From assembly GCF_024502345.1 (NCBI RefSeq), contig NZ_JALDNN010000001.1: a stretch of DNA of 64,000 nucleotides; one strand, written 5' to 3'. Shown piece after piece: positions 4,795-20,461 of the stretch. A program made the position numbers and the translations under genes. The notes beneath the pieces are model-generated. The model searched no databases. It was given only the letters and a program-made list of their open reading frames with translations, and was not told where the DNA came from. Position 1 is the first letter of the stretch, and each line of letters begins with the position of its first letter. Source of the DNA: Escherichia coli. GTDB lineage: Bacteria; Pseudomonadota; Gammaproteobacteria; Enterobacterales; Enterobacteriaceae.

Positions 4795-4910
4795 TAATTG
4801 TCGCGAAACTGTCTGGATTGTGAGCAAAGGCGCAGGAATTCAGAGACTCTCACTTATCACTTCACGGAATGAGGGTTACCATACCCGGATTGCATTGACA
4901 GGAGATGTCC

Positions 4911-5954
4911 ATGAGCGAGAACTCGATTCGTTTGACCCAATACAGCCACGGAGCTGGTTGCGGCTGTAAAATTTCCCCAAAAGTGTTGGAAACCATCCTG
5001 CACAGTGAGCAGGCGAAGTTTGTTGATCCGAATTTGCTTGTGGGTAATGAAACCCGCGACGATGCGGCGGTGTACGATCTGGGCAATGGCACCAGCGTTA
5101 TCAGTACCACCGACTTCTTTATGCCGATCGTTGATAATCCTTTCGATTTTGGCCGCATTGCGGCGACTAACGCCATCAGCGATATCTTCGCGATGGGGGG
5201 CAAACCGATTATGGCGATTGCGATCCTCGGCTGGCCGATTAACAAACTTTCCCCAGAAATTGCCCGCGAAGTAACCGAAGGTGGACGCTATGCATGCCGT
5301 CAGGCGGGTATTGCGCTGGCTGGCGGTCACTCCATCGATGCGCCGGAGCCGATTTTTGGTCTGGCGGTAACGGGGATCGTACCGACCGAGCGGGTGAAGA
5401 AAAACAGTACCGCACAAGCCGGATGCAAACTGTTCCTGACGAAACCGCTGGGGATCGGCGTTCTTACCACGGCTGAGAAAAAATCACTGTTGAAACCAGA
5501 ACATCAGGGACTGGCGACGGAAGTGATGTGCCGGATGAACATCGCAGGTGCGTCCTTTGCCAACATCGAAGGCGTAAAAGCGATGACCGACGTTACTGGT
5601 TTTGGTCTGCTGGGCCATTTGAGCGAAATGTGTCAGGGCGCAGGTGTGCAGGCGCGCGTTGACTATGACGCGATCCCAAAATTGCCGGGGGTTGAAGAGT
5701 ACATTAAGTTGGGCGCAGTGCCTGGCGGCACCGAACGTAACTTTGCCAGCTACGGTCATCTGATGGGTGAAATGCCGCGTGAAGTGCGCGATTTGCTGTG
5801 CGATCCGCAAACTTCTGGCGGTTTGCTGCTGGCGGTCATGCCGGAAGCAGAAAATGAGGTTAAAGCTACAGCCGCCGAGTTTGGCATTGAACTGACGGCG
5901 ATTGGCGAACTGGTGCCAGCGCGCGGCGGTCGTGCCATGGTTGAGATCCGTTAA
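4911..5954 (+). CDS. selD: selenide, water dikinase (selenophosphate synthetase)
   Basis: 347-aa product [30 protein letters not shown]... (Cys17 form). Track start is 2 codons upstream. Confidence 0.95.
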
Positions 5955-9014: not shown

Positions 9015-9069
9015 GGTGATGCTGCCAACTTACTGATTTAGTGTATGATGGTGTTTTTGAGGTGCTCCA

Positions 9070-9345
9070 GTGGCTTCTGTTTCTATCAGCTGTCCCTCCT
9101 GTTCAGCTACTGACGGGGTGGTGCGTAACGGCAAAAGCACCGCCGGACATCAGCGCTATCTCTGCTCTCACTGCCGTAAAACATGGCAACTGCAGTTCAC
9201 TTACACCGCTTCTCAACCCGGTACGCACCAGAAAATCATTGATATGGCCATGAATGGCGTTGGATGCCGGGCAACCGCCCGAATTATGGGCGTTGGCCTC
9301 AACACGATTTTCCGCCATTTAAAAAACTCAGGCCGCAGTCGGTAA
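9070..9345 (+). CDS. insA: IS1 InsA (transposition repressor / N-terminal part of the transposase)
   Basis: 91-aa [43 protein letters not shown]... matches IS1 InsA. Confidence 0.95.
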
Positions 9346-9767
9346 CCTCGCGCATACAGCCGGGCAGTGACGTCATCGTCTGCGCGGAAATGGACGAACA
9401 GTGGGGATACGTCGGGGCTAAATCGCGCCAGCGCTGGCTGTTTTACGCGTATGACAGGCTCCGGAAGACGGTTGTTGCGCACGTATTCGGTGAACGCACT
9501 ATGGCGACGCTGGGGCGTCTTATGAGCCTGCTGTCACCCTTTGACGTGGTGATATGGATGACGGATGGCTGGCCGCTGTATGAATCCCGCCTGAAGGGAA
9601 AGCTGCACGTAATCAGCAAGCGATATACGCAGCGAATTGAGCGGCATAACCTGAATCTGAGGCAGCACCTGGCACGGCTGGGACGGAAGTCGCTGTCGTT
9701 CTCAAAATCGGTGGAGCTGCATGACAAAGTCATCGGGCATTATCTGAACATAAAACACTATCAATAA
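9264..9767 (+). CDS. insB: IS1 InsB reading frame (expressed as the InsAB' transposase by -1 frameshifting)
   Basis: ORF ...[21 protein letters not shown]...[39 protein letters not shown]...; the slippery TTAAAAAACTC motif lies at about 9318-9328. Confidence 0.92.
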
Positions 9768-9782
9768 GTTGGAGTCATTACC

Positions 9783-9790
9783 CAGTTTTG
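9783..9790. repeat. target-site duplication (right copy) of the IS1 insertion
   Basis: cagttttg directly after the IS1 right end. Confidence 0.8.
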
Positions 9791-9876
9791 GGAGCACTAC
9801 AGTAAGAAATGCCGTTGGCCCATAAGAAATGTTCCCTGGGGAGCATCATCCGTTAAATACTCATAAACGCCTGAAA

Positions 9877-12207: not shown

Positions 12208-12293
12208 AAATTACACACGGGCAGATAAGCGAAAAATGCCATAATATCCGCACTGTTGCTCAATCAGAAAGGCTTTATATTTAAGGAGTGCCT

Positions 12294-12914
12294 GTGCTAG
12301 ACCGCCATCTTCATCCCCGGATTAAACCGTTGTTGCATCAGTGCGTGCGGGTTCTTGATAAACCGGGCATTACGCCAGATGGTTTAACATTAGTGGGATT
12401 TGCCATCGGCGTGCTGGCTCTGCCGTTTCTGGCTCTGGGCTGGTATCTGGCGGCGCTAGTCGTCATTTTGTTGAATCGTCTGCTTGATGGTCTGGATGGC
12501 GCACTGGCGCGGCGCAGAGGGCTTACCGACGCGGGCGGATTTCTCGATATTTCTCTCGATTTTCTCTTTTACGCGCTGGTGCCGTTTGGTTTTATTCTTG
12601 CTGCACCGGAGCAAAATGCGCTGGCAGGCGGCTGGCTGCTGTTTGCGTTTATCGGTACGGGCAGCAGTTTTCTCGCTTTTGCTGCGCTGGCGGCGAAACA
12701 TCAGATTGATAATCCCGGTTATGCGCATAAATCGTTTTATTATCTGGGGGGATTAACCGAAGGCACAGAAACGATCTTACTGTTTGTGCTGGGATGTTTA
12801 TTCCCTGCATGGTTTGCGTGGTTTGCGTGGATCTTCGGTGCGTTGTGCTGGATGACGACCTTTACGCGGGTGTGGAGTGGGTATCTGACGCTGAAGTCGT
12901 TCCAGCGTCAGTAA
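12294..12914 (+). CDS. ynjF: CDP-alcohol phosphatidyltransferase family membrane protein
   Basis: 206-aa from the GTG at 12294, 6 nt after AAGGAG; the track start at 12288 abuts the RBS. Contains the DG..AR motif and multiple TM segments. Confidence 0.8.
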   Translation: MLDRHLHPRIKPLLHQCVRVLDKPGITPDGLTLVGFAIGVLALPFLALGWYLAALVVILLNRLLDGLDGALARRRGLTDAGGFLDISLDFLFYALVPFGFILAAPEQNALAGGWLLFAFIGTGSSFLAFAALAAKHQIDNPGYAHKSFYYLGGLTEGTETILLFVLGCLFPAWFAWFAWIFGALCWMTTFTRVWSGYLTLKSFQRQ

Positions 12915-12922
12915 TTGCAATG

Positions 12923-14230
12923 TTATTTGCTGCTGTCCGGGCCGCGTTCACCGGTTGCTACCGGATTTTTGGGATCGCTGCTCCATTCGTACCAGCCGCC
13001 GTCGTAAACGGAGACGTTATTCCAGCCCATTGCTCGTGCGTACATAAAGGTTTCGGACGCGCGCCAGCCGGTGCCGCAGTAGAATGAAACTTGCTGATCT
13101 GGTTTGATATTCCATGCTTTCCACATAGCGGTAATATCATCGGCGCTACGCATGGTGCCATCGGGGTTATGGAAATCTTCCATATGCGTCGAGTCGCTAC
13201 CAGCGTGTCCCCAACGTGCTCCGGCTATTTCACCTTTTGGTTTAATATAACTGTAACCGCTGGTCGTACCGATAAATTCTGGCCACGAACGAATGCTCAC
13301 CAGCGATGCATCCTGGCGATGCAGCAGTCCACGGGCCTGTTCCATATCGAGCATCAACTGCGGTTGCGCCGGGATCTTCACGCCGAAATCCGGTTCCGCT
13401 TTCACTTTCGGTGGCGTTCCGCGCTCAACAGGCAGTCCCGCGTCGGACCAGGTTTGCCAGCCGCCATCCAGCAGGCGCACATCTTTCACGCCAGCATAAA
13501 GCATAATCTGCGCCACACGCGCTGCAGCATATACGTCACGCCCGTACAGAATGACCGTGGTGTCATGGCGAATGCCGTGTTTTGCCAGCATCGCTTTTAG
13601 TTGTTCATCAGAAACTTTGTTCCACAGCGGTTCGCTTTCCACTTCGTTGGTATCGATGTAGTCAGCGCCAGGAATATGGCTGATAAGGTAAAGCTTAGGA
13701 GCGCCCCAGGCCGCTTCAATGACTTTCCAGTCTCCGGCAGGTTTCGCCGTAACCTCTTTACCTTGTTGCAGGTCGTGCAGCCATTGCGGATAAACCAGCT
13801 GCTCAAAGTGCGGCAGTTTTTGTAGACGGGAAGGTTCGCTTAGCGCGTCACTCAGAATGGAGATATGCGTAAAACCTGCTTTTTGCAGTCGCGTTTTGAC
13901 GGCGTCGACATCTTTGCCATTACCGTATAGCGCCACCGGGGCATCGGCTTTCAGGTTATGTTGCTTGATCCACGCGTTTAGCTGTTCGGTGCTCATTTTG
14001 TCAAGCCAGCTAGCAGAGAGGTTTAAGGCGGCAGGTTCATGACCAGAAGGGCCATTTAAGGTTTGTGGCCAGCCGTTATAAAACGCGCTGGGGCGAGTAT
14101 CTATCGCTTTGCCATTTTGTTGTTGAAGCTGGTCAAGTGTAAGAGGCTTCGCCAGTTCAGCGGCCCACGAAGAAGCGCAAGCCAGCCCTAAAGCCATTGC
14201 CAGCGCGGTCATTTGAGAAACACGTTTCAT
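12923..14230 (-). CDS. ynjE: periplasmic sulfurtransferase with three rhodanese domains
   Basis: 435-aa MKRVSQMTALAMALGLACASSWAAE... with a signal peptide and three rhodanese repeats. Confidence 0.9.
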   Translation of the reverse strand: MKRVSQMTALAMALGLACASSWAAELAKPLTLDQLQQQNGKAIDTRPSAFYNGWPQTLNGPSGHEPAALNLSASWLDKMSTEQLNAWIKQHNLKADAPVALYGNGKDVDAVKTRLQKAGFTHISILSDALSEPSRLQKLPHFEQLVYPQWLHDLQQGKEVTAKPAGDWKVIEAAWGAPKLYLISHIPGADYIDTNEVESEPLWNKVSDEQLKAMLAKHGIRHDTTVILYGRDVYAAARVAQIMLYAGVKDVRLLDGGWQTWSDAGLPVERGTPPKVKAEPDFGVKIPAQPQLMLDMEQARGLLHRQDASLVSIRSWPEFIGTTSGYSYIKPKGEIAGARWGHAGSDSTHMEDFHNPDGTMRSADDITAMWKAWNIKPDQQVSFYCGTGWRASETFMYARAMGWNNVSVYDGGWYEWSSDPKNPVATGERGPDSSK

Positions 14231-14296
14231 CGAAAATCCCGACATTGTAGTTTTGAGTGCGCCATTCTGAACTGACGCATTGGGAAAAACTTTGCG

Positions 14297-14950
14297 TTAT
14301 CGCAGTTTGTTGTAATTTTCTGACCACTGAGCCATATCCAGAACAGAACTATCAGCAGGAACATCCTGGAGATCGTGCGTTACCTGAACGACGGGGAGCG
14401 CCAGTTCGCGAACTTCGCTGAACACCCACTGGCGAAAATTATCGCGCAGAGCCACATCAAGACGGCTGAATGGCTCATCCAGTAGCAACGCTTTTGGCTG
14501 AGCGAGAAGGGCGCGAAGCAGAGCAACGCGCGCTCGCTGACCGCCAGACAAAGTGGCAGGATCCTGATGGAAAGCTCCGTCAAGGCCTGAACGCTCAAGT
14601 GCATCATTCACGGCATTACGTCGGGCATTCCCCTTAAGTGTCGCCGGTAGCGCCAGCAGTAAATTTTGCCCGACACTGAACTGGTCAAATAACAGTACAT
14701 CCTGGAAAAGAATGCCAATATGACGCTGTGCGGTGGGTAGCATGTCAATCCGTTGCTCATTGAGCCATAGCTCACCTGTACAAGAAAACTGTCCAGCCAG
14801 TGCACCAATCATCCATGAAAACAGAGTGGATTTTCCACAGCCAGACGGACCCATTAACGTGACAATGTCACCTTTATCCACCGTAAAGTTAACGTTTGTC
14901 AGCAAGCGGCTTTCTGGTAAACGTAGCGAAACATTTTTCACGCAGAGCAT
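14297..14950 (-). CDS. ynjD: ABC transporter ATP-binding protein
   Basis: 217-aa MLCVKNVSL...GPSGCGKST...LSGGQRARVALLRAL...LLLDEP (Walker A, signature, Walker B). Its start overlaps the ynjC stop by 1 nt. Confidence 0.9.
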   Translation of the reverse strand: MLCVKNVSLRLPESRLLTNVNFTVDKGDIVTLMGPSGCGKSTLFSWMIGALAGQFSCTGELWLNEQRIDMLPTAQRHIGILFQDVLLFDQFSVGQNLLLALPATLKGNARRNAVNDALERSGLDGAFHQDPATLSGGQRARVALLRALLAQPKALLLDEPFSRLDVALRDNFRQWVFSEVRELALPVVQVTHDLQDVPADSSVLDMAQWSENYNKLR

Positions 14951-16485
14951 TAGCGGAGTCCTTGTCTGACATAACCTACCCATTTTGCGACTAACGCGGT
15001 CAGGGCAAAAATAGTAAGCGGTAATAGCAGTTGCCATAAAGCCTGGGCGGCGAGAATACCGTTGCTGCCGCCGCTGCTTAATGCCACCGCCTCAGTGGTG
15101 AGCGTCGGAAAACGCCCCGCGCCCAGCCACAGCGTCGGCATATACTGCGCAATACTGACTGAAAATCCCACCGCGAAGGCAATCAGCGTAGGGCGTAGCA
15201 TAAGCGGACATTTCACGTAAAAGAAGATTTTGGCCCGCGACCAGCCCAGTGTTTGTGCAATCAAAATTAACCGTGAATCAATGCGCTGCCAGGCGGGTTG
15301 CAGGATAAACAGCATCCACGGCATTACCCACAGCAGATGCCCCCAGACCACCGCCGTCCAGCTTCCATCCATGTTCAGCCATAGCGCCAGCGTGTACTGG
15401 CCCGCCACCAGCTGCAGTGCCGGTAATAAAATGGGCAACCATAGCCACAACTGGCGACGCTGTGGCCCCCATTCCAGCCACAGCAGTAACAGGAGCCAAG
15501 CGATGAATGTCGCCACCAGCCCCATTGTCAGGCTGTTGATGAGCGCTTCACTATTGATCGTCGACTGATCCGCGAGGATCGCCAGCAGAACCACACACAG
15601 CACACCGGTCAAGGGTAAAAAACTCGCCAGCGTAATGCCTGGCAATAAAGGCGTGGCAGGCTTACGAACGCCATCTACGCGGGGAATAGTACGCCGCCAG
15701 GTACACCATAGCAGATAGCCCAGCAAAACGTAGGCGGCGAGTAACAACATCAGCAGCAGGCTGGCGAGTGCGCCTTTCGTTTGTTGATCGGCGTCGCCCT
15801 GAGTTAACCACTGCCAGCTAATTACTGCCAGCGTCGGTGGATTACCTGGCCCAAGAATAATCGCCACATCCACGACCGACAGCGACCAGGCAACAATCGC
15901 CAGCATCGCCATTGCCAGCGCAGGCGCGACGGAGGGCAACAGCAGCCAGTTCAGGCATTGCCAGCGGCTGTAGCCCAGCGAATCCAGCACGATGACTTGC
16001 TGTAAAAGCCGTTTTTCACTCAATACCGCTGCTAAGATCCACAGCAGAAATGCGCTTTCTTTCACCGCCAGCGTGAAGCCCAGCCCAATACCCAATTTGT
16101 CCATTGGCGGAGTGAAATACGGGAAATAGTCATAAAGCAGCCCTCCGTCAGCAAAGAGCAGAAGGGCGCTGGTGGCAAAAGCCACATGGGGAATGGCGAG
16201 CAGCCACGGCAGACGGGTGCACATACGCTGCCATTTCGGCCCAGGCCACAGCGCCACAATCACCAGCAGGGCAATCAACAACGCCCCGACCGCCGCGATG
16301 GTTGTCGACACCAGCGTTGCCAGTAATGCCTGCGGTAACTGTGGATCGGCAAATAACGCCTGCCAGTGTGTCAACGACAAAGCAGGCGATATCAGCGTGA
16401 GAGCTGCCGGGATCAGCGGTGCATAAATCACCGCCACCATCGCCCACAGCAAAAAGATTAATGCGTACCGTAACGGTGTAGCCAT
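14950..16485 (-). CDS. ynjC: ABC transporter permease with two fused permease domains
   Basis: 511-aa highly hydrophobic product MATPLRYALIFLLWAMVAV... Confidence 0.9.
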   Translation of the reverse strand: MATPLRYALIFLLWAMVAVIYAPLIPAALTLISPALSLTHWQALFADPQLPQALLATLVSTTIAAVGALLIALLVIVALWPGPKWQRMCTRLPWLLAIPHVAFATSALLLFADGGLLYDYFPYFTPPMDKLGIGLGFTLAVKESAFLLWILAAVLSEKRLLQQVIVLDSLGYSRWQCLNWLLLPSVAPALAMAMLAIVAWSLSVVDVAIILGPGNPPTLAVISWQWLTQGDADQQTKGALASLLLMLLLAAYVLLGYLLWCTWRRTIPRVDGVRKPATPLLPGITLASFLPLTGVLCVVLLAILADQSTINSEALINSLTMGLVATFIAWLLLLLWLEWGPQRRQLWLWLPILLPALQLVAGQYTLALWLNMDGSWTAVVWGHLLWVMPWMLFILQPAWQRIDSRLILIAQTLGWSRAKIFFYVKCPLMLRPTLIAFAVGFSVSIAQYMPTLWLGAGRFPTLTTEAVALSSGGSNGILAAQALWQLLLPLTIFALTALVAKWVGYVRQGLR

Positions 16486-17624
16486 TCTTGTTCCAGCGCA
16501 TTTACCCAACCTGCGTGCGGTTCAGCCAGTACCGGCGGCAGATCTTGCGGCATTCTTGATTGCAATGTTTCGCGCTGCCCATCAGGCAGTTTTTGCGGAT
16601 CGAGAACAGAAGGATCGCCCCAGACAGCGGGATCTGCTTTACGCAATTGCGCATCGGGTGAGAGCAAGAAATTGGCAACTACCTTCGCCGCAGCACTGGC
16701 ATTCGCGTTGGCAGGAATGGTGACGAAATGCACGTTGCCAATCGTCCCCTCGCGAAAGCCAAAACTGTAACTGCTTGCAGGCAAATCGCCGCTGGCGATT
16801 TTTTGCTGCGCATGCGCGGGGTTAAAGGTCAGCGACAGGCGCAATGTGCCGGCTTTCAGCAGAGCATCCATCCGCGCGGGCGAAGGCGGGAAATCCTTTC
16901 CTTCGCGCCACAAATACGGATGCAGCGCATCAAGATATTGCCACAAGGGAGCAGTGACGCGGGCGAAAGTCGCATCGTCCGGCGCTTCTTTTAATGCGGC
17001 GGGATCGGCCGTCAGCATAATCAGCAACTGTTCAAGAAACGCCGTGCCGGTAAAGTCCGGTGGGCGCGGATAGGTAACCGTGCCGGGATTGGCTTTAGCA
17101 AACTCCAGTAAGGCTTGCGGCGTTTGTGGTGGCTGTGGCGTAACATCGCGGCGGGCGATAAATGTCAGTTGTGCGCCCCCCCAGGGCGATTCAGCCCCTT
17201 CTGTAGGCACTGAAAAATCTTCCCGCACCGGCAGCTGTGTGTCGACATAGCGCCAGTTGGGCAGAGTCTCTGCCCAGTCGGTTTGCAGTAAATTGGCCTC
17301 TTTTAAGGTGCGGAAGTTTTCGCCGTTCACCCAGAGTAGATCCACCGAGCCGCCCGTTTTACGTCCGGCTGCGGCTTCGGTCTGAATGCGCTTCACCGCG
17401 TCTGCGGCATCCGCCAGACGGACAATCTTCAGGTTTATAGCGTAATGGGTTTTCATCTCGCCGCTCACCCAGTCGAGATAGCGGTTAATTGCGGTATCGC
17501 CGCCCCAGGCGTTAAACCAGACGGTTTGCCCTTTGGCCTCATTTTTAATTTCTTGCCAGTCACTGGCATATGTTGCCAGAGAAAACAGCGATAACAATCC
17601 CAGCAACCACCCACAATGGCGCAT
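16458..17624 (-). CDS. ynjB: ABC transporter periplasmic substrate-binding protein
   Basis: 388-aa product with a signal peptide (MRHCGWLLGLLSLFSLATYA); overlaps the ynjC start. Confidence 0.88.
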   Translation of the reverse strand: MRHCGWLLGLLSLFSLATYASDWQEIKNEAKGQTVWFNAWGGDTAINRYLDWVSGEMKTHYAINLKIVRLADAADAVKRIQTEAAAGRKTGGSVDLLWVNGENFRTLKEANLLQTDWAETLPNWRYVDTQLPVREDFSVPTEGAESPWGGAQLTFIARRDVTPQPPQTPQALLEFAKANPGTVTYPRPPDFTGTAFLEQLLIMLTADPAALKEAPDDATFARVTAPLWQYLDALHPYLWREGKDFPPSPARMDALLKAGTLRLSLTFNPAHAQQKIASGDLPASSYSFGFREGTIGNVHFVTIPANANASAAAKVVANFLLSPDAQLRKADPAVWGDPSVLDPQKLPDGQRETLQSRMPQDLPPVLAEPHAGWVNALEQEWLHRYGTH

Positions 17625-17633
17625 CATCTCTCC

Positions 17634-18182
17634 TTAAGAACGTTTTTCCGGAATACGGCACAGTCCCTGAGCGGGAATGTCCATGGCAGAATTAAAACGA
17701 GCCGACAGGTTTTGCAGGCCGATCAATGCCGTCAGTTCGGTGAGCGCCTGAGCGTCAAAATGCGCAGCCAGTCGGGTACGCAGGGCATCATCGACCGTTG
17801 GCGGCGTTACGCTTGCGGCTTCGGCGTACTCCAGCGCCAGCCGTTCTTCATCGCTAAAGAGCGGGCTTTGCCGCCAGTCAGCCACTGCCAGCAGTTTATC
17901 GCTGCTGCCGGTGCGCTCGGCGACTTTCATACTGGTGATATCCACACAAAACTCACACAGGCACATTTGCGCAATGCGCGCGCTGACAAGCGATCGTACT
18001 ACCGGATCGAGCGGTGAGCGTTTGCGCTCCAGCCAGCCAACAAACATCGACACCAGATAAAAGATAAACGGGATCCGCCCCCACCAGCGAATGGGGCTTA
18101 GCACCTCGCCGTAATGGCGACGATGCAGCCACGCCTGCGGACGTAAAATGAAAGGAATTTTGCTAAGCGGCGGTAAACCCAT
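17634..18182 (-). CDS. ynjA: AhpD-like / carboxymuconolactone decarboxylase family protein
   Basis: 182-aa ORF; its start overlaps the ydjZ stop by 1 nt (TGATG arrangement). Confidence 0.85.
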   Translation of the reverse strand: MGLPPLSKIPFILRPQAWLHRRHYGEVLSPIRWWGRIPFIFYLVSMFVGWLERKRSPLDPVVRSLVSARIAQMCLCEFCVDITSMKVAERTGSSDKLLAVADWRQSPLFSDEERLALEYAEAASVTPPTVDDALRTRLAAHFDAQALTELTALIGLQNLSARFNSAMDIPAQGLCRIPEKRS

Positions 18183-18889
18183 CAGGCATTCCTCTTCTGG
18201 CGCTCAAGCCATATTTTCTTCGCCATAAAAATCACCACGGTCAGGGCAAACAGAATAAACAGTCCGGTGACAAACCAGAAGGTACCGCCTGTTAACATGC
18301 TGCCCGCCCAGGAATAAACAATAGTCGCCGGTAACTGACCAAGCCCGGTGGCGATAAAAAACGAGCGAAAACGTATTGAAGTCAAACCGGCAGCATAGCT
18401 GATTGGATCGAAAGGGACAAAAGGCAATAACCGACAGACCAGGATGGTGTGTTTGCCGTAGCGAGTGAAAAAGCCGTCCATACTGTCAAGTACGGTTTTG
18501 CCGGTTAATTTTTCCACCACTTCGCGGCCCATCACTCTGGCGATAAAAAAGCACAGTGCCGCGCCGGCCATCGAACTGGTCCACGACAGCAAGCCGCCCC
18601 AGAACGCGCCAAACAGCGACGCATTGGCAAAGGTGATCAAAAACGCAGGTAGCGGTGCAGCAATGGCCTGTAAAATCATCAACAAGAACGAGACAACTGC
18701 CGCCAGTGCGCCGTAAGACTGAATAAAGCGTTCTATACCCTGTTGGTCCACGGCGGCAAACGCCGCAACGCTGCGATTGATAAACTCATGGACGCCGGGA
18801 AGCAGCGCCCATGCCAGCAGCATAGCGAACAACAGGATGATGAGGGTTATACGGTAGTACCAGATTTTACGCGATTGCATCTTCATCAT
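18182..18889 (-). CDS. ydjZ: DedA / TVP38-TMEM64 family inner membrane protein
   Basis: 235-aa polytopic membrane protein MMKMQSRKIWYYRITLIILLFAMLLAWALL... Confidence 0.88.
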   Translation of the reverse strand: MMKMQSRKIWYYRITLIILLFAMLLAWALLPGVHEFINRSVAAFAAVDQQGIERFIQSYGALAAVVSFLLMILQAIAAPLPAFLITFANASLFGAFWGGLLSWTSSMAGAALCFFIARVMGREVVEKLTGKTVLDSMDGFFTRYGKHTILVCRLLPFVPFDPISYAAGLTSIRFRSFFIATGLGQLPATIVYSWAGSMLTGGTFWFVTGLFILFALTVVIFMAKKIWLERQKRNA

Positions 18890-18903
18890 CCTTTATCCTG
18901 GCT

Positions 18904-19581
18904 TTATTCGGTGATTTTAAAGGTAACCGTTGCCAGCGTGTTATCCGCCGGGAGAACCGAGGCATTGCCTTTGAATTTAACTTCACCTCGTTTTTCAACC
19001 GCACCATAAGTGTATGTTGCATTGCTGACGATGCCGACCGGGCAGCTATCCAGACACACCAGGCAACCCGTTTTCTTCTCTTCTGCTGCCGTTAAATTAC
19101 CGCCAAAGCGCATGTCCAGTTTCTTGCCATTACTGTCAACAATCACTTCATCGAAGGAATACGTTTTTGCCGCCCCTTGCCAGTTGACCGAAATATCCAG
19201 TTTGCTGCCCGTGACATGAGTCGTTTCTTTATTATCCATCGTCATGTTTTCGCCCGGCGTACCACCTGCCTCTTTCAGGGCTTCATAAAATGCTTTCGGG
19301 GTCGCATAACCCATAAACAGCGATTTATGTCCGTTGGAGCCATCTTTAAACACAATACCGTGACGAGTGTCGTCGGTGAGGAAACGACCATTAATTTGCA
19401 CCAGCATGGTTACCGTATGGTTATTGGCATCGACGCGCAGCGGTTGGCTGTTCGAAAGTCCGTCGTATTCCACTTTTGCCGCCGTATTCTCTTTTTGATC
19501 GCAGCCGCTAAGCCCAGCAACAGCCAGTAAGCAGAGTGCAGTCAGTCCTTTTTTCCATGACACTGAATAATGTTGCAACAT
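18904..19581 (-). CDS. ydjY: lipoprotein of unknown function
   Basis: 225-aa MLQHYSVSWKKGLTALCLLAVAGLSGC... (lipobox LSGC) with a C-terminal CLVCLDSCPVG Cys cluster. Track ORF is longer; start set at the ATG at 19579-19581. Confidence 0.85.
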   Translation of the reverse strand: MLQHYSVSWKKGLTALCLLAVAGLSGCDQKENTAAKVEYDGLSNSQPLRVDANNHTVTMLVQINGRFLTDDTRHGIVFKDGSNGHKSLFMGYATPKAFYEALKEAGGTPGENMTMDNKETTHVTGSKLDISVNWQGAAKTYSFDEVIVDSNGKKLDMRFGGNLTAAEEKKTGCLVCLDSCPVGIVSNATYTYGAVEKRGEVKFKGNASVLPADNTLATVTFKITE

Positions 19582-19585
19582 CGTT

Positions 19586-20295
19586 CTATCCTTCATTTTT
19601 TGGGTGAGTAAGTGGGTTGCGGCGCGAAGCAGACAGATCCACATGTTTGTGTCGGGCGTAGAGTTTGGCGAGCTGGACGAGAATAAACAGCGCCAGGCCC
19701 GCCAGACAGAGTTGTAAAATAAAGCGCAGCGTAATGCCTTCATTGGCGAGATCGCTTGCCATCACGGTATAAATAACAATACCGGGCAGGGTCGTGAGTG
19801 CCGAAATAAGGGTATAAGGCCAGAAGGCGATTGTGGTTAATCCGTAAGCGTAATTTTGAATATTGTAAGGAAACAACGGGATTAAGCGGGTCAGAATAAG
19901 AAAATCAATACCGTTACGCGCGATGCCTTTTTCAATGGCCTGGAAGGTATGGCTATGGCCAACGTATTTCAGCAGTAAATCACGTCCCAGCCAGCGCGCC
20001 AGCAGGAATGAGCACGAGGAGGCCAGCGTGGCGGCAATTAATGAGAGTAGTGTTCCTAAGAGCGGCCAAAAACTATTCCTCCAGCGATCACCAGTATGCT
20101 TCCTGGTAACAGAAAGAGGGTGGCAATGATGAATAACAGAATATAGAGGCTATAACCGAACAATCCGCTCTGGCGGATGAGTGTCTGTAAGTGGGGTAAA
20201 TCGGTGAGCAGATCGAATAAACCGAAAGCGTGGATAGCGTAAATGACCAGCGCAAAAATAAGACAGGCAAAAAGAAATTTACGCTCAGCGTTCAT
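19586..20295 (-). pseudogene. ydjX: DedA / TVP38-TMEM64 family membrane protein gene with a 1-bp deletion frameshift
   Basis: Upstream frame ends ...ILVIAGGIVFGRS* at 20056. The downstream frame reads ...WPLLGTLLSLIAATLASSCSFLLARWLGRDLLLKYVGHSHTFQAIEKG...LFPYNIQNYAYG... to 19586. A single C missing from GGCC(C)G at about 20063-20066 joins them into a 236-aa protein. Confidence 0.8.
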
Positions 20296-20461
20296 CGTGG
20301 AGTTTCCTATATCAAACTTGATAATAGAGAAGTGGTCAGACAACTAAAAACGCAGAGACGGTATAACAAAGGACGGCAGGCAACAAATCATTACTGACAG
20401 TTTGTTGATTTTTCTCAAGGTTAATTCTCCTGACCCAGTTTGAGCCAGGAGAGCTGTTAAA

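Follow-up and report, generated by a model that had tools for sequence, protein, structure and literature searches.

The ydjXYZ-ynjABCD operon of Escherichia coli and the adjacent gene ynjE lie in a stretch of 64,000 nucleotides (the window; contig NZ_JALDNN010000001.1 of assembly GCF_024502345.1), where the eight genes from ydjX to ynjE are all carried by the minus strand (Table 1). The region is collinear with ydjX-ydjY-ydjZ-ynjA-ynjB-ynjC-ynjD-ynjE of E. coli, with a best identity of 99.2% to 5,426 complete E. coli genomes, and the gene limits were transferred from the RefSeq annotation of the E. coli genome showing this identity. The cluster was found in 5,424 of the 5,426 genomes. A previous reading of the window, made from its letters alone (the sequence-only reading), had described eight same-strand genes with minimal gaps. 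The strand is confirmed and the limits 12923-20295 are exact, the former being the final base of the ynjE stop codon and the latter the first base of the ydjX ATG. However, the intergenic spacing from ydjX to ynjE is, in order, 4, 14, -1, 9, -28, -1 and 66 nt, so that gaps are minimal only from ydjX to ynjD (-28 to 14 nt), ynjE sitting behind 66 nt, and ydjX is broken in this genome. The protein types that had been proposed (two TVP38/DedA proteins, a Cys lipoprotein, a CMD/AhpD-like protein, an ATP-binding cassette (ABC) importer and an exported three-domain rhodanese) are borne out by family and PDB scores. Literature searches returned only regulon lists, screens and reviews, with no functional study of ydjX, ydjY, ydjZ, ynjA, ynjB, ynjC, ynjD or ynjF and no substrate, as had been supposed. 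The gene selD, which had been placed about 14 kb away, is separated by 14.3 kb from the start of ydjX and by 7.0 kb from the stop of ynjE; it is outside the operon and is a possible downstream user of its product.

Table 1. Features of the window and of the compared loci (positions refer to the window unless a locus, L, is given).
Feature	Position	Strand	Description
selD	4905-5954	+	selenide, water dikinase; open reading frame (ORF), named selD by the annotation of the collinear E. coli genome
IS1	9040-9810		at the 3' end of ynjI; InsA ORF 9070-9345, InsB ORF 9264-9767
ynjF	12288-12914	+	CDP-alcohol phosphatidyltransferase; runs toward ynjE, the two stop codons being 8 nt apart
ynjE	12923-14230	-	exported three-domain rhodanese, active-site Cys385
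promoter-like site	14244-14271	-	TTCAGA-16-TACAAT, within the 66-nt ynjD-ynjE gap
ynjD	14297-14950	-	ABC ATPase, 217 aa, without C-terminal regulatory domain
ynjC	14950-16485	-	fused two-domain ABC permease
ynjB	16458-17624	-	periplasmic binding protein of ABC importer, subfamily NF008633
ynjA	17634-18182	-	CMD/AhpD-like protein, C74-x-C76-x-x-C79
ydjZ	18182-18889	-	TVP38/TMEM64-type DedA protein; conserved membrane partner of YdjY
ydjY	18904-19581	-	exported lipoprotein, CxxCxxxC; signature protein of the system
ydjX	19586-20295	-	TVP38/TMEM64-type DedA protein; pseudogene in this window; remnant ORF fragments 20056-20343 and 19586-19876
FNR-like box	20405-20418	-	TTGAGAAAAATCAA, some 110 nt ahead of the start codon of ydjX
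HdrD-like-DedA fusions	L004:11205-12977, L018:8002-9957, L051:7148-9001, L078:8173-9888		Desulfobacterota
small membrane protein after YdjY	L002:10649-11029, L004:10666-11130, L022:8174-8578		examples
selenium genes	L081		SelD>YedF>YdjY, one strand
selenium genes	L025		Hdr-DedA>YdjY>SelD, adjacent
selenium genes	L080		YedF and SelD immediately upstream of Hdr-DedA>YdjY
selenium genes	L077, L085		Facklamia; cluster followed after 3 kb by selD-yedF-selB-selA
selenium genes	L023, L051, L078		YedF
GRDB/PrdB-like genes	L077:3693-4412, L089:3599-4273		in-frame TGA, motif SPG-U-YIC
ArsS loci of Bacteroidota	L090:8659-10035, L091:7528-11039, L092:9001-11043		neither DedA nor rhodanese neighbour

The cluster was compared with those of other bacteria by scanning one genome per species, which yielded 80 loci from about 36 taxon groups. 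Two passes were made: the E. coli proteins were mapped on all ORFs, and every ORF at most 7 kb from YdjY was clustered without labels. The same gene families recur together in Firmicutes, Campylobacterota and Desulfobacterota. YdjY shows 50-60% identity across E. coli and these three phyla, with 42 invariant columns that include R73-H74, FGGN159-162 and G-C173-x-x-C176-x-D-S-C180; the motif G-C-x-x-C-x-D-S-C is found in 79 of the 85 family members from the loci. The protein carries a Sec-type signal without twin arginine and a lipobox (LSGC, Cys27). It belongs to the family NF040466 (146.4 bits; threshold of 50 bits for the domain) and has no significant Pfam-A match in the library scanned, PF27149 being listed in precomputed annotations of its homologues. 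This family is rare (391 among 1.84 billion representatives at 50% identity), and the predicted structure of YdjY, although modelled with confidence, has no solved relative. The name of 4Fe-4S ferredoxin that some sources give to YdjY was rejected, as Fer4 reaches only E values of at least 0.09, the motif holds three cysteines only and the protein is exported by means of a Sec lipobox.

A VTT/DedA gene lies at most 7 kb from YdjY in 82 of the 83 YdjY-holding loci according to the label-free clustering, and in 77 loci and 31 of 36 taxon groups according to labelled hits. A co-occurrence check had been proposed by the sequence-only reading; the genes are linked in other genomes. The DedA neighbour is usually YdjZ-like (200-280 bits) and directly adjacent, and a second, YdjX-like copy is frequent. 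To our knowledge, no other DedA protein has an obligate lipoprotein partner. YdjX and YdjZ bear the RefSeq name TVP38/TMEM64, and PF09335 is carried by their Salmonella and Kluyvera orthologues and by the partners of distant YdjY proteins. They belong to the same superfamily as DedA/UptA and the scramblases TMEM41B/VMP1, within which they group with the eukaryotic TMEM41/Tvp38 branch (bioRxiv 2020.12.18.423352). A role as UptA (equivalog NF052604) was rejected, since the scores of 36.4 bits for YdjZ and 27.6 bits for YdjX are far under the cut-off of 250; published complementation is also contrary, high-level rescue having been obtained with the E. coli protein named DedA instead (bioRxiv 2022.02.03.479048).

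Gene fusions were sought among the 50%-identity representatives of the YdjY family. In P0432, the C-terminal part of a DedA protein is joined to a YdjY domain. P0390, which has a lipoprotein signal, consists of one rhodanese domain followed by a YdjY domain, and P0466 has the order YdjY-rhodanese-YdjY behind a signal-like N-terminus. These rhodanese-YdjY and DedA-YdjY fusions are an argument for YdjY acting directly with the rhodanese as well as with DedA. A further candidate, the YdjX-YdjY fusion P0362, was dropped as evidence, as it is an E. coli sequence joined by mutation. In Desulfobacterota, the DedA/VTT protein is itself fused to an HdrD-like domain (Fer4_8, Fer4_17, CCG; about 570-650 aa). 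The same Fe-S/CCG protein is encoded by a gene of its own in Campylobacter, Catonella and some Firmicutes, its best family being NF045663 ('dicluster near Sec'). Directly after YdjY, 30 loci belonging to 15 taxon groups encode a small multi-pass membrane protein (about 125-155 aa) with a shared W(V/I)WLEMR motif, which has neither an NCBIfam match nor a counterpart in E. coli.

The third partner, YnjE, matches its own crystal structures with 954 bits (PDB 3IPO/3IPP and 2WLR/2WLX) and has three rhodanese domains. Its Cys385 lies within the loop FYCGTGWRASE, CGTGWR being the six-residue catalytic loop, and the protein has a signal peptide, behind which the crystallised chains begin. The protein was described as periplasmic, with no useful thiosulfate:glutathione activity and a physiological substrate that is not known, and the experiments used versions without signal peptide (PMC10215317). 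The next best match, over the full length and with 300 bits, is EanB (PDB 6KTV, 6H98), the closest characterised relative of YnjE: the active-site loop is nearly identical (FYCGTGWR-A/G-SE) and the motifs SGY and PE(F/Y)IG are common to both. YnjE had already been placed by the Seebeck group among 'EanB-like enzymes' of unknown function, and polysulfide is the sulfur donor of EanB, the anaerobic ergothioneine synthase (PMC9516567). However, EanB is cytoplasmic and has a histidine methyltransferase as partner, whereas YnjE is exported, has YdjY and DedA proteins as partners and has no known heterocycle acceptor; no EanA-like gene was seen in the cluster. YnjE/EanB-like rhodaneses lie near YdjY in five taxon groups from three phyla, all with a signal peptide or a lipobox; those adjoining YdjY in Firmicutes and Campylobacter are lipoproteins or secreted proteins.

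In E. coli K-12, chromatin immunoprecipitation and RNA-seq showed that ydjXYZ-ynjABCD is an operon directly activated by FNR, with an FNR site at -60.5, and that ynjE is a separate FNR-activated unit with its own site at -41.5 (PMC3688515). The FNR-like box upstream of ydjX has one mismatch to TTGAT-N4-ATCAA and the same letters in the E. coli reference; alone it proves nothing, because the pattern is not enriched in the window (43 matches versus 35 expected). The putative promoter in the ynjD-ynjE gap, with its -10-like TACAAT, is consistent with the separate ynjE transcription unit. Independent component analysis of E. coli transcriptomes grouped the operon, ynjE, yedEF and yjiLM in an uncharacterised anaerobic module, for which a role in molybdenum and selenium use was proposed (PMC7888660). 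Over-production of BaeR leads to mild induction of ynjABCD.

The separate transcription of ynjE bears on the question of whether the eight genes are one unit at all. YnjE might serve the cytoplasmic synthesis of the molybdenum cofactor beside an unrelated transporter operon, the cluster being mere adjacency. Besides having its own promoter, YnjE is named molybdopterin-synthase sulfurtransferase in work as cited by PMC3688515 and PMC7888660, and the sequence-only reading had likewise linked it to this pathway. This name stands in the literature; the role fits poorly with an exported protein whose experiments were made on versions lacking the signal peptide, and with the export of the YnjE homologues that adjoin YdjY. 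Moreover, the same families co-occur and fuse across phyla, and ynjE shares one expression module with the operon. An explanation by adjacency thus appears extremely unlikely: the unit stands as a recurrent set of families, and ynjE is separate as an FNR-dependent transcript.

Genes of selenium metabolism are found beside the YdjY-DedA core. The 1.31 Mb of loci were screened over all ORFs with the SelD of the window, then with YedF, SelA and SelB. SelD homologues adjoin YdjY-TVP38 in four other taxon groups; overall, selD and/or yedF occur in 8 loci belonging to 6 of the 36 taxon groups (Table 1). The SelD, YedF, SelB and SelA hits of L025, L077, L080 and L081 are above the curated NCBIfam cut-offs. 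If one selD per genome of about 3 Mb is assumed, 0.2-0.4 loci would be expected by chance, which corresponds to a Poisson probability of about 1e-4 according to our rough estimate. Two observations in E. coli agree with this link, namely the joint expression of the operon with yedEF and the distance of 7-14 kb to selD. The neighbourhoods are rich in Cys/Sec redox families (ArsS and C-GCAxxG-C-C (seleno)proteins, 'dicluster near Sec', CcdA/ResA-like and GRDB-like proteins). In the ArsS-DedA clusters of Facklamia and Aerococcus, the GRDB/PrdB-like genes are selenoprotein genes called as two ORFs, because the in-frame TGA is conserved and followed by about 84 conserved residues.

The reading that is tentatively preferred here, with somewhat less than even confidence, sees the cluster as the form taken in enterobacteria by a modular envelope system that relays a reduced chalcogen, most probably selenium and possibly sulfane sulfur, from the outside to the cytoplasm. 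The process can be pictured in five steps. The exported rhodanese YnjE would load the atom on Cys385 as a persulfide or perselenide. YdjY, anchored in the membrane, would receive it from YnjE on its three invariant cysteines. The TVP38-type DedA proteins YdjZ and YdjX would then carry it across the membrane, either directly or in a lipid-bound form. On the cytoplasmic side, a thiol-redox protein would free selenide, this protein being the AhpD-like YnjA in E. coli and the HdrD-like Fe-S/CCG domain elsewhere. Finally, SelD would use the released selenide. The operon is turned on by FNR in anaerobiosis, the condition under which E. coli makes most of its selenoproteins. YnjBCD and YnjF probably form a second, genetically linked arm, which would import an organic non-oxyanion solute and couple it to a phospholipid. 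Gene content, export signals, conserved cysteines and the co-occurrence and fusions across phyla are observed, and FNR control is documented in the literature; which atom is carried, in which direction it moves and how it is handed on at each step is our inference. Selenium seems likelier than sulfur because of the selD and yedF neighbours, the co-regulation with yedEF and the fact that a trace element would justify such machinery. No organism has a known transporter dedicated to selenium (PMC11097638), so that the role of selenium uptake is vacant.

The relay would resemble the pairs YedE-YedF and YeeE(TsuA)-YeeD(TsuB), in which a membrane protein and a small sulfur carrier also bring in a sulfur or selenium species, thiosulfate being taken up by TsuA/TsuB. 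In E. coli, yedEF belongs to the same expression module as the operon, and YedF adjoins YdjY in several taxa. The systems differ in their components, which are YeeE/YedE with TusA-like proteins in one case and the unrelated TVP38/DedA proteins with YdjY in the other, and in the location of the carriers, YdjY and YnjE being outside the membrane.

Several points weigh against this relay. No experiment ties any gene of the cluster to selenium, and sulfur and selenium are indistinguishable from sequence. The clusters of Salmonella and Kluyvera are devoid of ydjY although all other parts are kept. The adjacency of selD or yedF concerns 6 of the 36 taxon groups only, chiefly Desulfobacterota and Facklamia, and could reflect clusters that encode selenoproteins rather than selenium import. 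The link of a DedA protein with selenite is an old one. The characterised members of the DedA superfamily move lipids (undecaprenyl phosphate, phospholipids) and not inorganic species (bioRxiv 2022.02.03.479048), and a comparative-genomics survey of selenium genes published in 2015 does not mention these families. Lastly, the relay leaves unexplained the linkage of an ABC importer and a phospholipid-synthase-like enzyme, as well as the neighbours of ArsS type.

These neighbours comprise the radical-SAM protein ArsS (TIGR04167, 337 bits for a cut-off of 300) in 8 of the 36 taxon groups and the transferases TIGR04282/TIGR04283 likewise in 8, every hit exceeding its curated cut-off; they are accompanied by a nucleoside hydrolase and a kinase-like protein. 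The cluster could be viewed as related to the 'arsenosugar' pathways of ArsS type and as handling organo-arsenic compounds or related metalloids: As(III) would be held by the three cysteines of YdjY and of YnjA, and E. coli would keep a subset for scavenging or lipid attachment. Motifs of three cysteines are typical As(III) sites, the nucleoside hydrolase is expected after 5'-deoxyadenosyl transfer, and the TIGR04169 CMD protein accompanies ArsS in Bacteroidota much as YnjA is found here; more generally, 'rSAM-selenodomain' or 'arsenosugar' clusters share CMD/AhpD-like, rhodanese and DedA accessories with YdjY loci. However, neither ArsS, TIGR04282, TIGR04283 nor the kinase is encoded in the cluster of the window, its control depends on FNR and not on an arsenic sensor (PMC3688515), and 'arsenosugar' is an annotation label for these homologues.

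The reverse check, starting from ArsS, found DedA beside ArsS in Aerococcus and not in three Bacteroidota loci, so that ArsS does not have DedA as a general partner. Two different kinds of 'ArsS' cluster seem to exist. Among the Bacteroidota loci, L090 and L091 hold the TIGR04169 CMD gene, L091 and L092 an ArsM-like methyltransferase gene, and L091 only a PHO4 transporter gene; the two loci with the arsenite-methyltransferase-like gene have neither DedA nor YdjY. In Firmicutes and other anaerobes, the ArsS clusters lack a methyltransferase and contain rhodaneses, DedA, a nucleosidase and a protein of kinase type instead. The anaerobe clusters with DedA and YdjY thus have rhodaneses and selenium genes in place of the arsenite methyltransferase seen in two of the three Bacteroidota loci, which suggests that the 'arsenosugar' label may misdescribe them. 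Literature searches found nothing linking ArsS with DedA. Taken together, a function in arsenic handling is decidedly improbable.

Concerning the ABC importer, which is complete (binding protein YnjB, two permease halves in YnjC, ATPase YnjD), the sequence-only reading had proposed that a sulfur or selenium species is captured in the periplasm and imported, coupled to sulfurtransferase chemistry. In its most direct version, YnjBCD would take up thiosulfate, selenite or tellurite captured in the periplasm and YnjE would process it. The proximity of the importer and an exported rhodanese, the weak matches of YnjD and YnjC to sulfate/molybdate systems and the general selenium context agree with this. 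However, YnjB, which matches NF008633 with 562.8 bits for a cut-off of 203 and also PF13416, matches no sulfate, thiosulfate or molybdate binding-protein family in NCBIfam. A structure prediction, which had been suggested as a check, gave a model of YnjB (AlphaFold2, pLDDT 88); its nearest folds, at 12-18% identity, are PhnS-like, FutA/FbpA, PotD, MctA and AfuA proteins, that is, binders of aminoethylphosphonate, iron, polyamines, metal-citrate and sugar-phosphate, and the 50 best PDB folds include no sulfate or molybdate binder. When PDB sequences were searched with a profile, PotD and an opine binder were found, TbpA (2QRY) being reached at E 0.15 only. The 47 invariant positions of YnjB are rich in Trp/Phe/Tyr and Asp/Glu/Asn, with one Lys and no Arg. 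An oxyanion ligand is thus unlikely for YnjB, owing to the lack of relation to such binders and to these aromatic and acidic invariants.

YnjC has permease-like stretches at about 20-215 and 360-497, with weak matches to PhnU2, ModB and CysT that are far under cut-off, and YnjD has generic ABC ATPase matches (PhnT2, sulfate, ThiQ, PotA) that are all under the family cut-offs. The general architecture is like that of CysPUWA and ThiBPQ. The former was rejected as an assignment (no Sbp/CysP match; CysT 22-23 bits versus 246-415; CysA 112 versus 502), and so was the latter (ThiQ 133 bits versus 245, and the distant TbpA match), although databases file YnjBCD under the thiamine family (PMC9184624). 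YnjB-subfamily importers, with YnjD and a YnjC counterpart split into two genes, lie near YdjY in 8 of the 36 taxon groups, where the Firmicute neighbours score 381-491 bits for the cut-off of 203; the majority of the YdjY-DedA loci do not have them. It is the pair of YdjY and TVP38 that is conserved as a conduit, not the ABC system. Together with the poor thiosulfate activity of YnjE (PMC10215317), these data make oxyanion import by YnjBCD very unlikely. Of the proposal of the sequence-only reading, the periplasmic part, with sulfurtransferase chemistry, retains the backing of exported rhodaneses, rhodanese-YdjY fusions and selenium genes; the ABC import of an oxyanion is probably not correct. 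Selenium starvation of Methanococcus maripaludis leads to a 20- to 60-fold induction of an ABC operon, annotated as encoding a PgtC-like binding protein and a PhnU-like permease, which is the same broad ABC class as YnjBC by annotation only (PMC11097638).

YnjA, the putative unloading protein of the relay, matches PF02627 (E 5.3e-8) and is below the cut-offs of the specific CMD subfamilies; its best NCBIfam match is the YciW-related (seleno)protein family, with 101 bits, under cut-off. No YnjA homologue was found at E <1e-5 in the YdjY loci outside Enterobacteria. In Salmonella and Kluyvera, a YnjA-like CMD gene lies upstream of ynjF, co-operonic with it, convergent to ynjE and outside the main operon. 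The gene ynjF, which the sequence-only reading had left out, thus also belongs to the system, because of this co-operonic CMD gene and because it lies inside Firmicute operons: in five Firmicute taxa, the YnjBCD/YdjY operons include same-strand homologues with matches to the same families. The ynjE and ynjF transcripts overlap in E. coli, where the pair is listed as an 'excludon' (PMC12288877). The catalytic motif DGx2ARx7Gx3Dx3D of YnjF is intact (DGALARRRGLTDAGGFLDISLD from residue 70). Its best families are archaetidylinositol-phosphate and PIP synthases, and no specific synthase family reaches its cut-off.

These features lead to another explanation, a pathway for a lipid head group, in which YnjBCD would import a polar alcohol or phosphorylated polyol, YnjF would join it to CDP-diacylglycerol, YdjX and YdjZ, joined in Firmicutes by an MprF-like flippase domain, would flip the lipid, and YdjY and YnjE would modify or use it on the outer face, sulfur or selenium being secondary or absent. 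It draws on the intact motif and the inositol-phosphate-type relatives of YnjF, on the same-strand association of YnjF-type genes with YnjB-subfamily importers in Firmicutes and also in Enterobacteria, and on the lipid movements catalysed by characterised DedA-superfamily members. A flippase-like TIGR00374 (MprF-like) protein is encoded after YdjZ in six taxa; this domain occurs together with a C-GCAxxG-C-C (seleno)protein in six taxon groups. The fusion P0481 (478 aa), which joins a fatty-acid-hydroxylase/OlsE-like membrane domain to a YdjY domain, is a second hint of a lipid connection. By analogy, choline import combined with phosphatidylcholine synthase (Pcs) would follow the logic proposed for YnjBCD-YnjF, a head-group alcohol importer being paired with a CDP-alcohol phosphatidyltransferase; YnjF scores only about 19 bits against Pcs cut-offs of 300-440, so that this is an analogy only. 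In laboratory evolution, ynjC P213S gave a strong fitness gain under colistin (PMC9184624), an envelope phenotype that agrees with a lipid pathway and that none of the models explains. On the other hand, YnjF-type CDP-alcohol phosphatidyltransferases occur near YdjY in 6 of the 36 taxon groups and YnjB in 8, versus the near-universal YdjY-DedA core. The rhodanese fusions, the Hdr-like fusions and the selD/yedF neighbours remain unaccounted for, and E. coli YdjX/YdjZ are not the paralogue with high-level rescue of undecaprenyl-phosphate transport (bioRxiv 2022.02.03.479048). As the main function of the cluster, a lipid head-group pathway is possible and rather unlikely.

The selenium relay and the lipid arm could be combined. 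YdjY, a TVP38-type DedA protein and an exported rhodanese would then be a dedicated selenium uptake machine for SelD, with a phospholipid head group as membrane carrier, a proposal that is quite unlikely as it stands. In this speculative scheme, the head group would be either imported by YnjBCD, as in E. coli, or built elsewhere by the ArsS-type radical-SAM protein, the nucleosidase, the kinase and the transferase, and would be attached by YnjF. Selenium might be loaded outside, DedA might flip the carrier and YnjA or the Hdr-like domain might unload it inside, in a way that can be likened to the undecaprenyl-phosphate glycan cycle.

The locus was known before. Its architecture across phyla, the inclusion of ynjF, the adjacency of selenium genes and the fusions were not found in the literature searched and are new here. 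They provide a first functional context for the lipoprotein YdjY, for the DedA branch related to eukaryotic TMEM41/Tvp38 proteins and for many anaerobe ArsS-type clusters without arsenite methyltransferase. For the uptake of selenium at trace levels by bacteria, the cluster gives a testable candidate: almost all E. coli genomes carry it, it is switched on when E. coli makes its selenoproteins, and it lends itself to genetics. With the comparative evidence, the orphan operon becomes a matter for specific and cheap experiments, and the question of selenium uptake can be put directly in E. coli. If the idea of selenium fails, the lipid arm YnjBCD-YnjF-DedA still leads toward an unknown anaerobic membrane lipid.

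In the genome analysed here, seven of the eight genes are intact, with 0-4 residue differences each from the E. coli reference. Alignment to the E. coli genome shows that ydjX has lost a single T between 20064 and 20063 (GGCCTGCTC to GGCCGCTC), which shifts the frame at codon 78 and gives a product of 79 aa instead of 236 aa. This 1-nt deletion lies outside any homopolymer run and is absent from all 5,426 complete E. coli genomes, and the genes downstream show no signs of decay. The loss of ydjX may be tolerated, because many taxa hold the YdjZ-like DedA copy only. Near the cluster, the insertion sequence IS1 lies at the 3' end of ynjI, which is shortened to 288 aa. The insertion in ynjI, the frameshift of ydjX and the best identity of 99.2% suggest a Shigella-like, decaying genome. 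The topB-gdhA interval is 778 bp longer in the window than in the E. coli reference.

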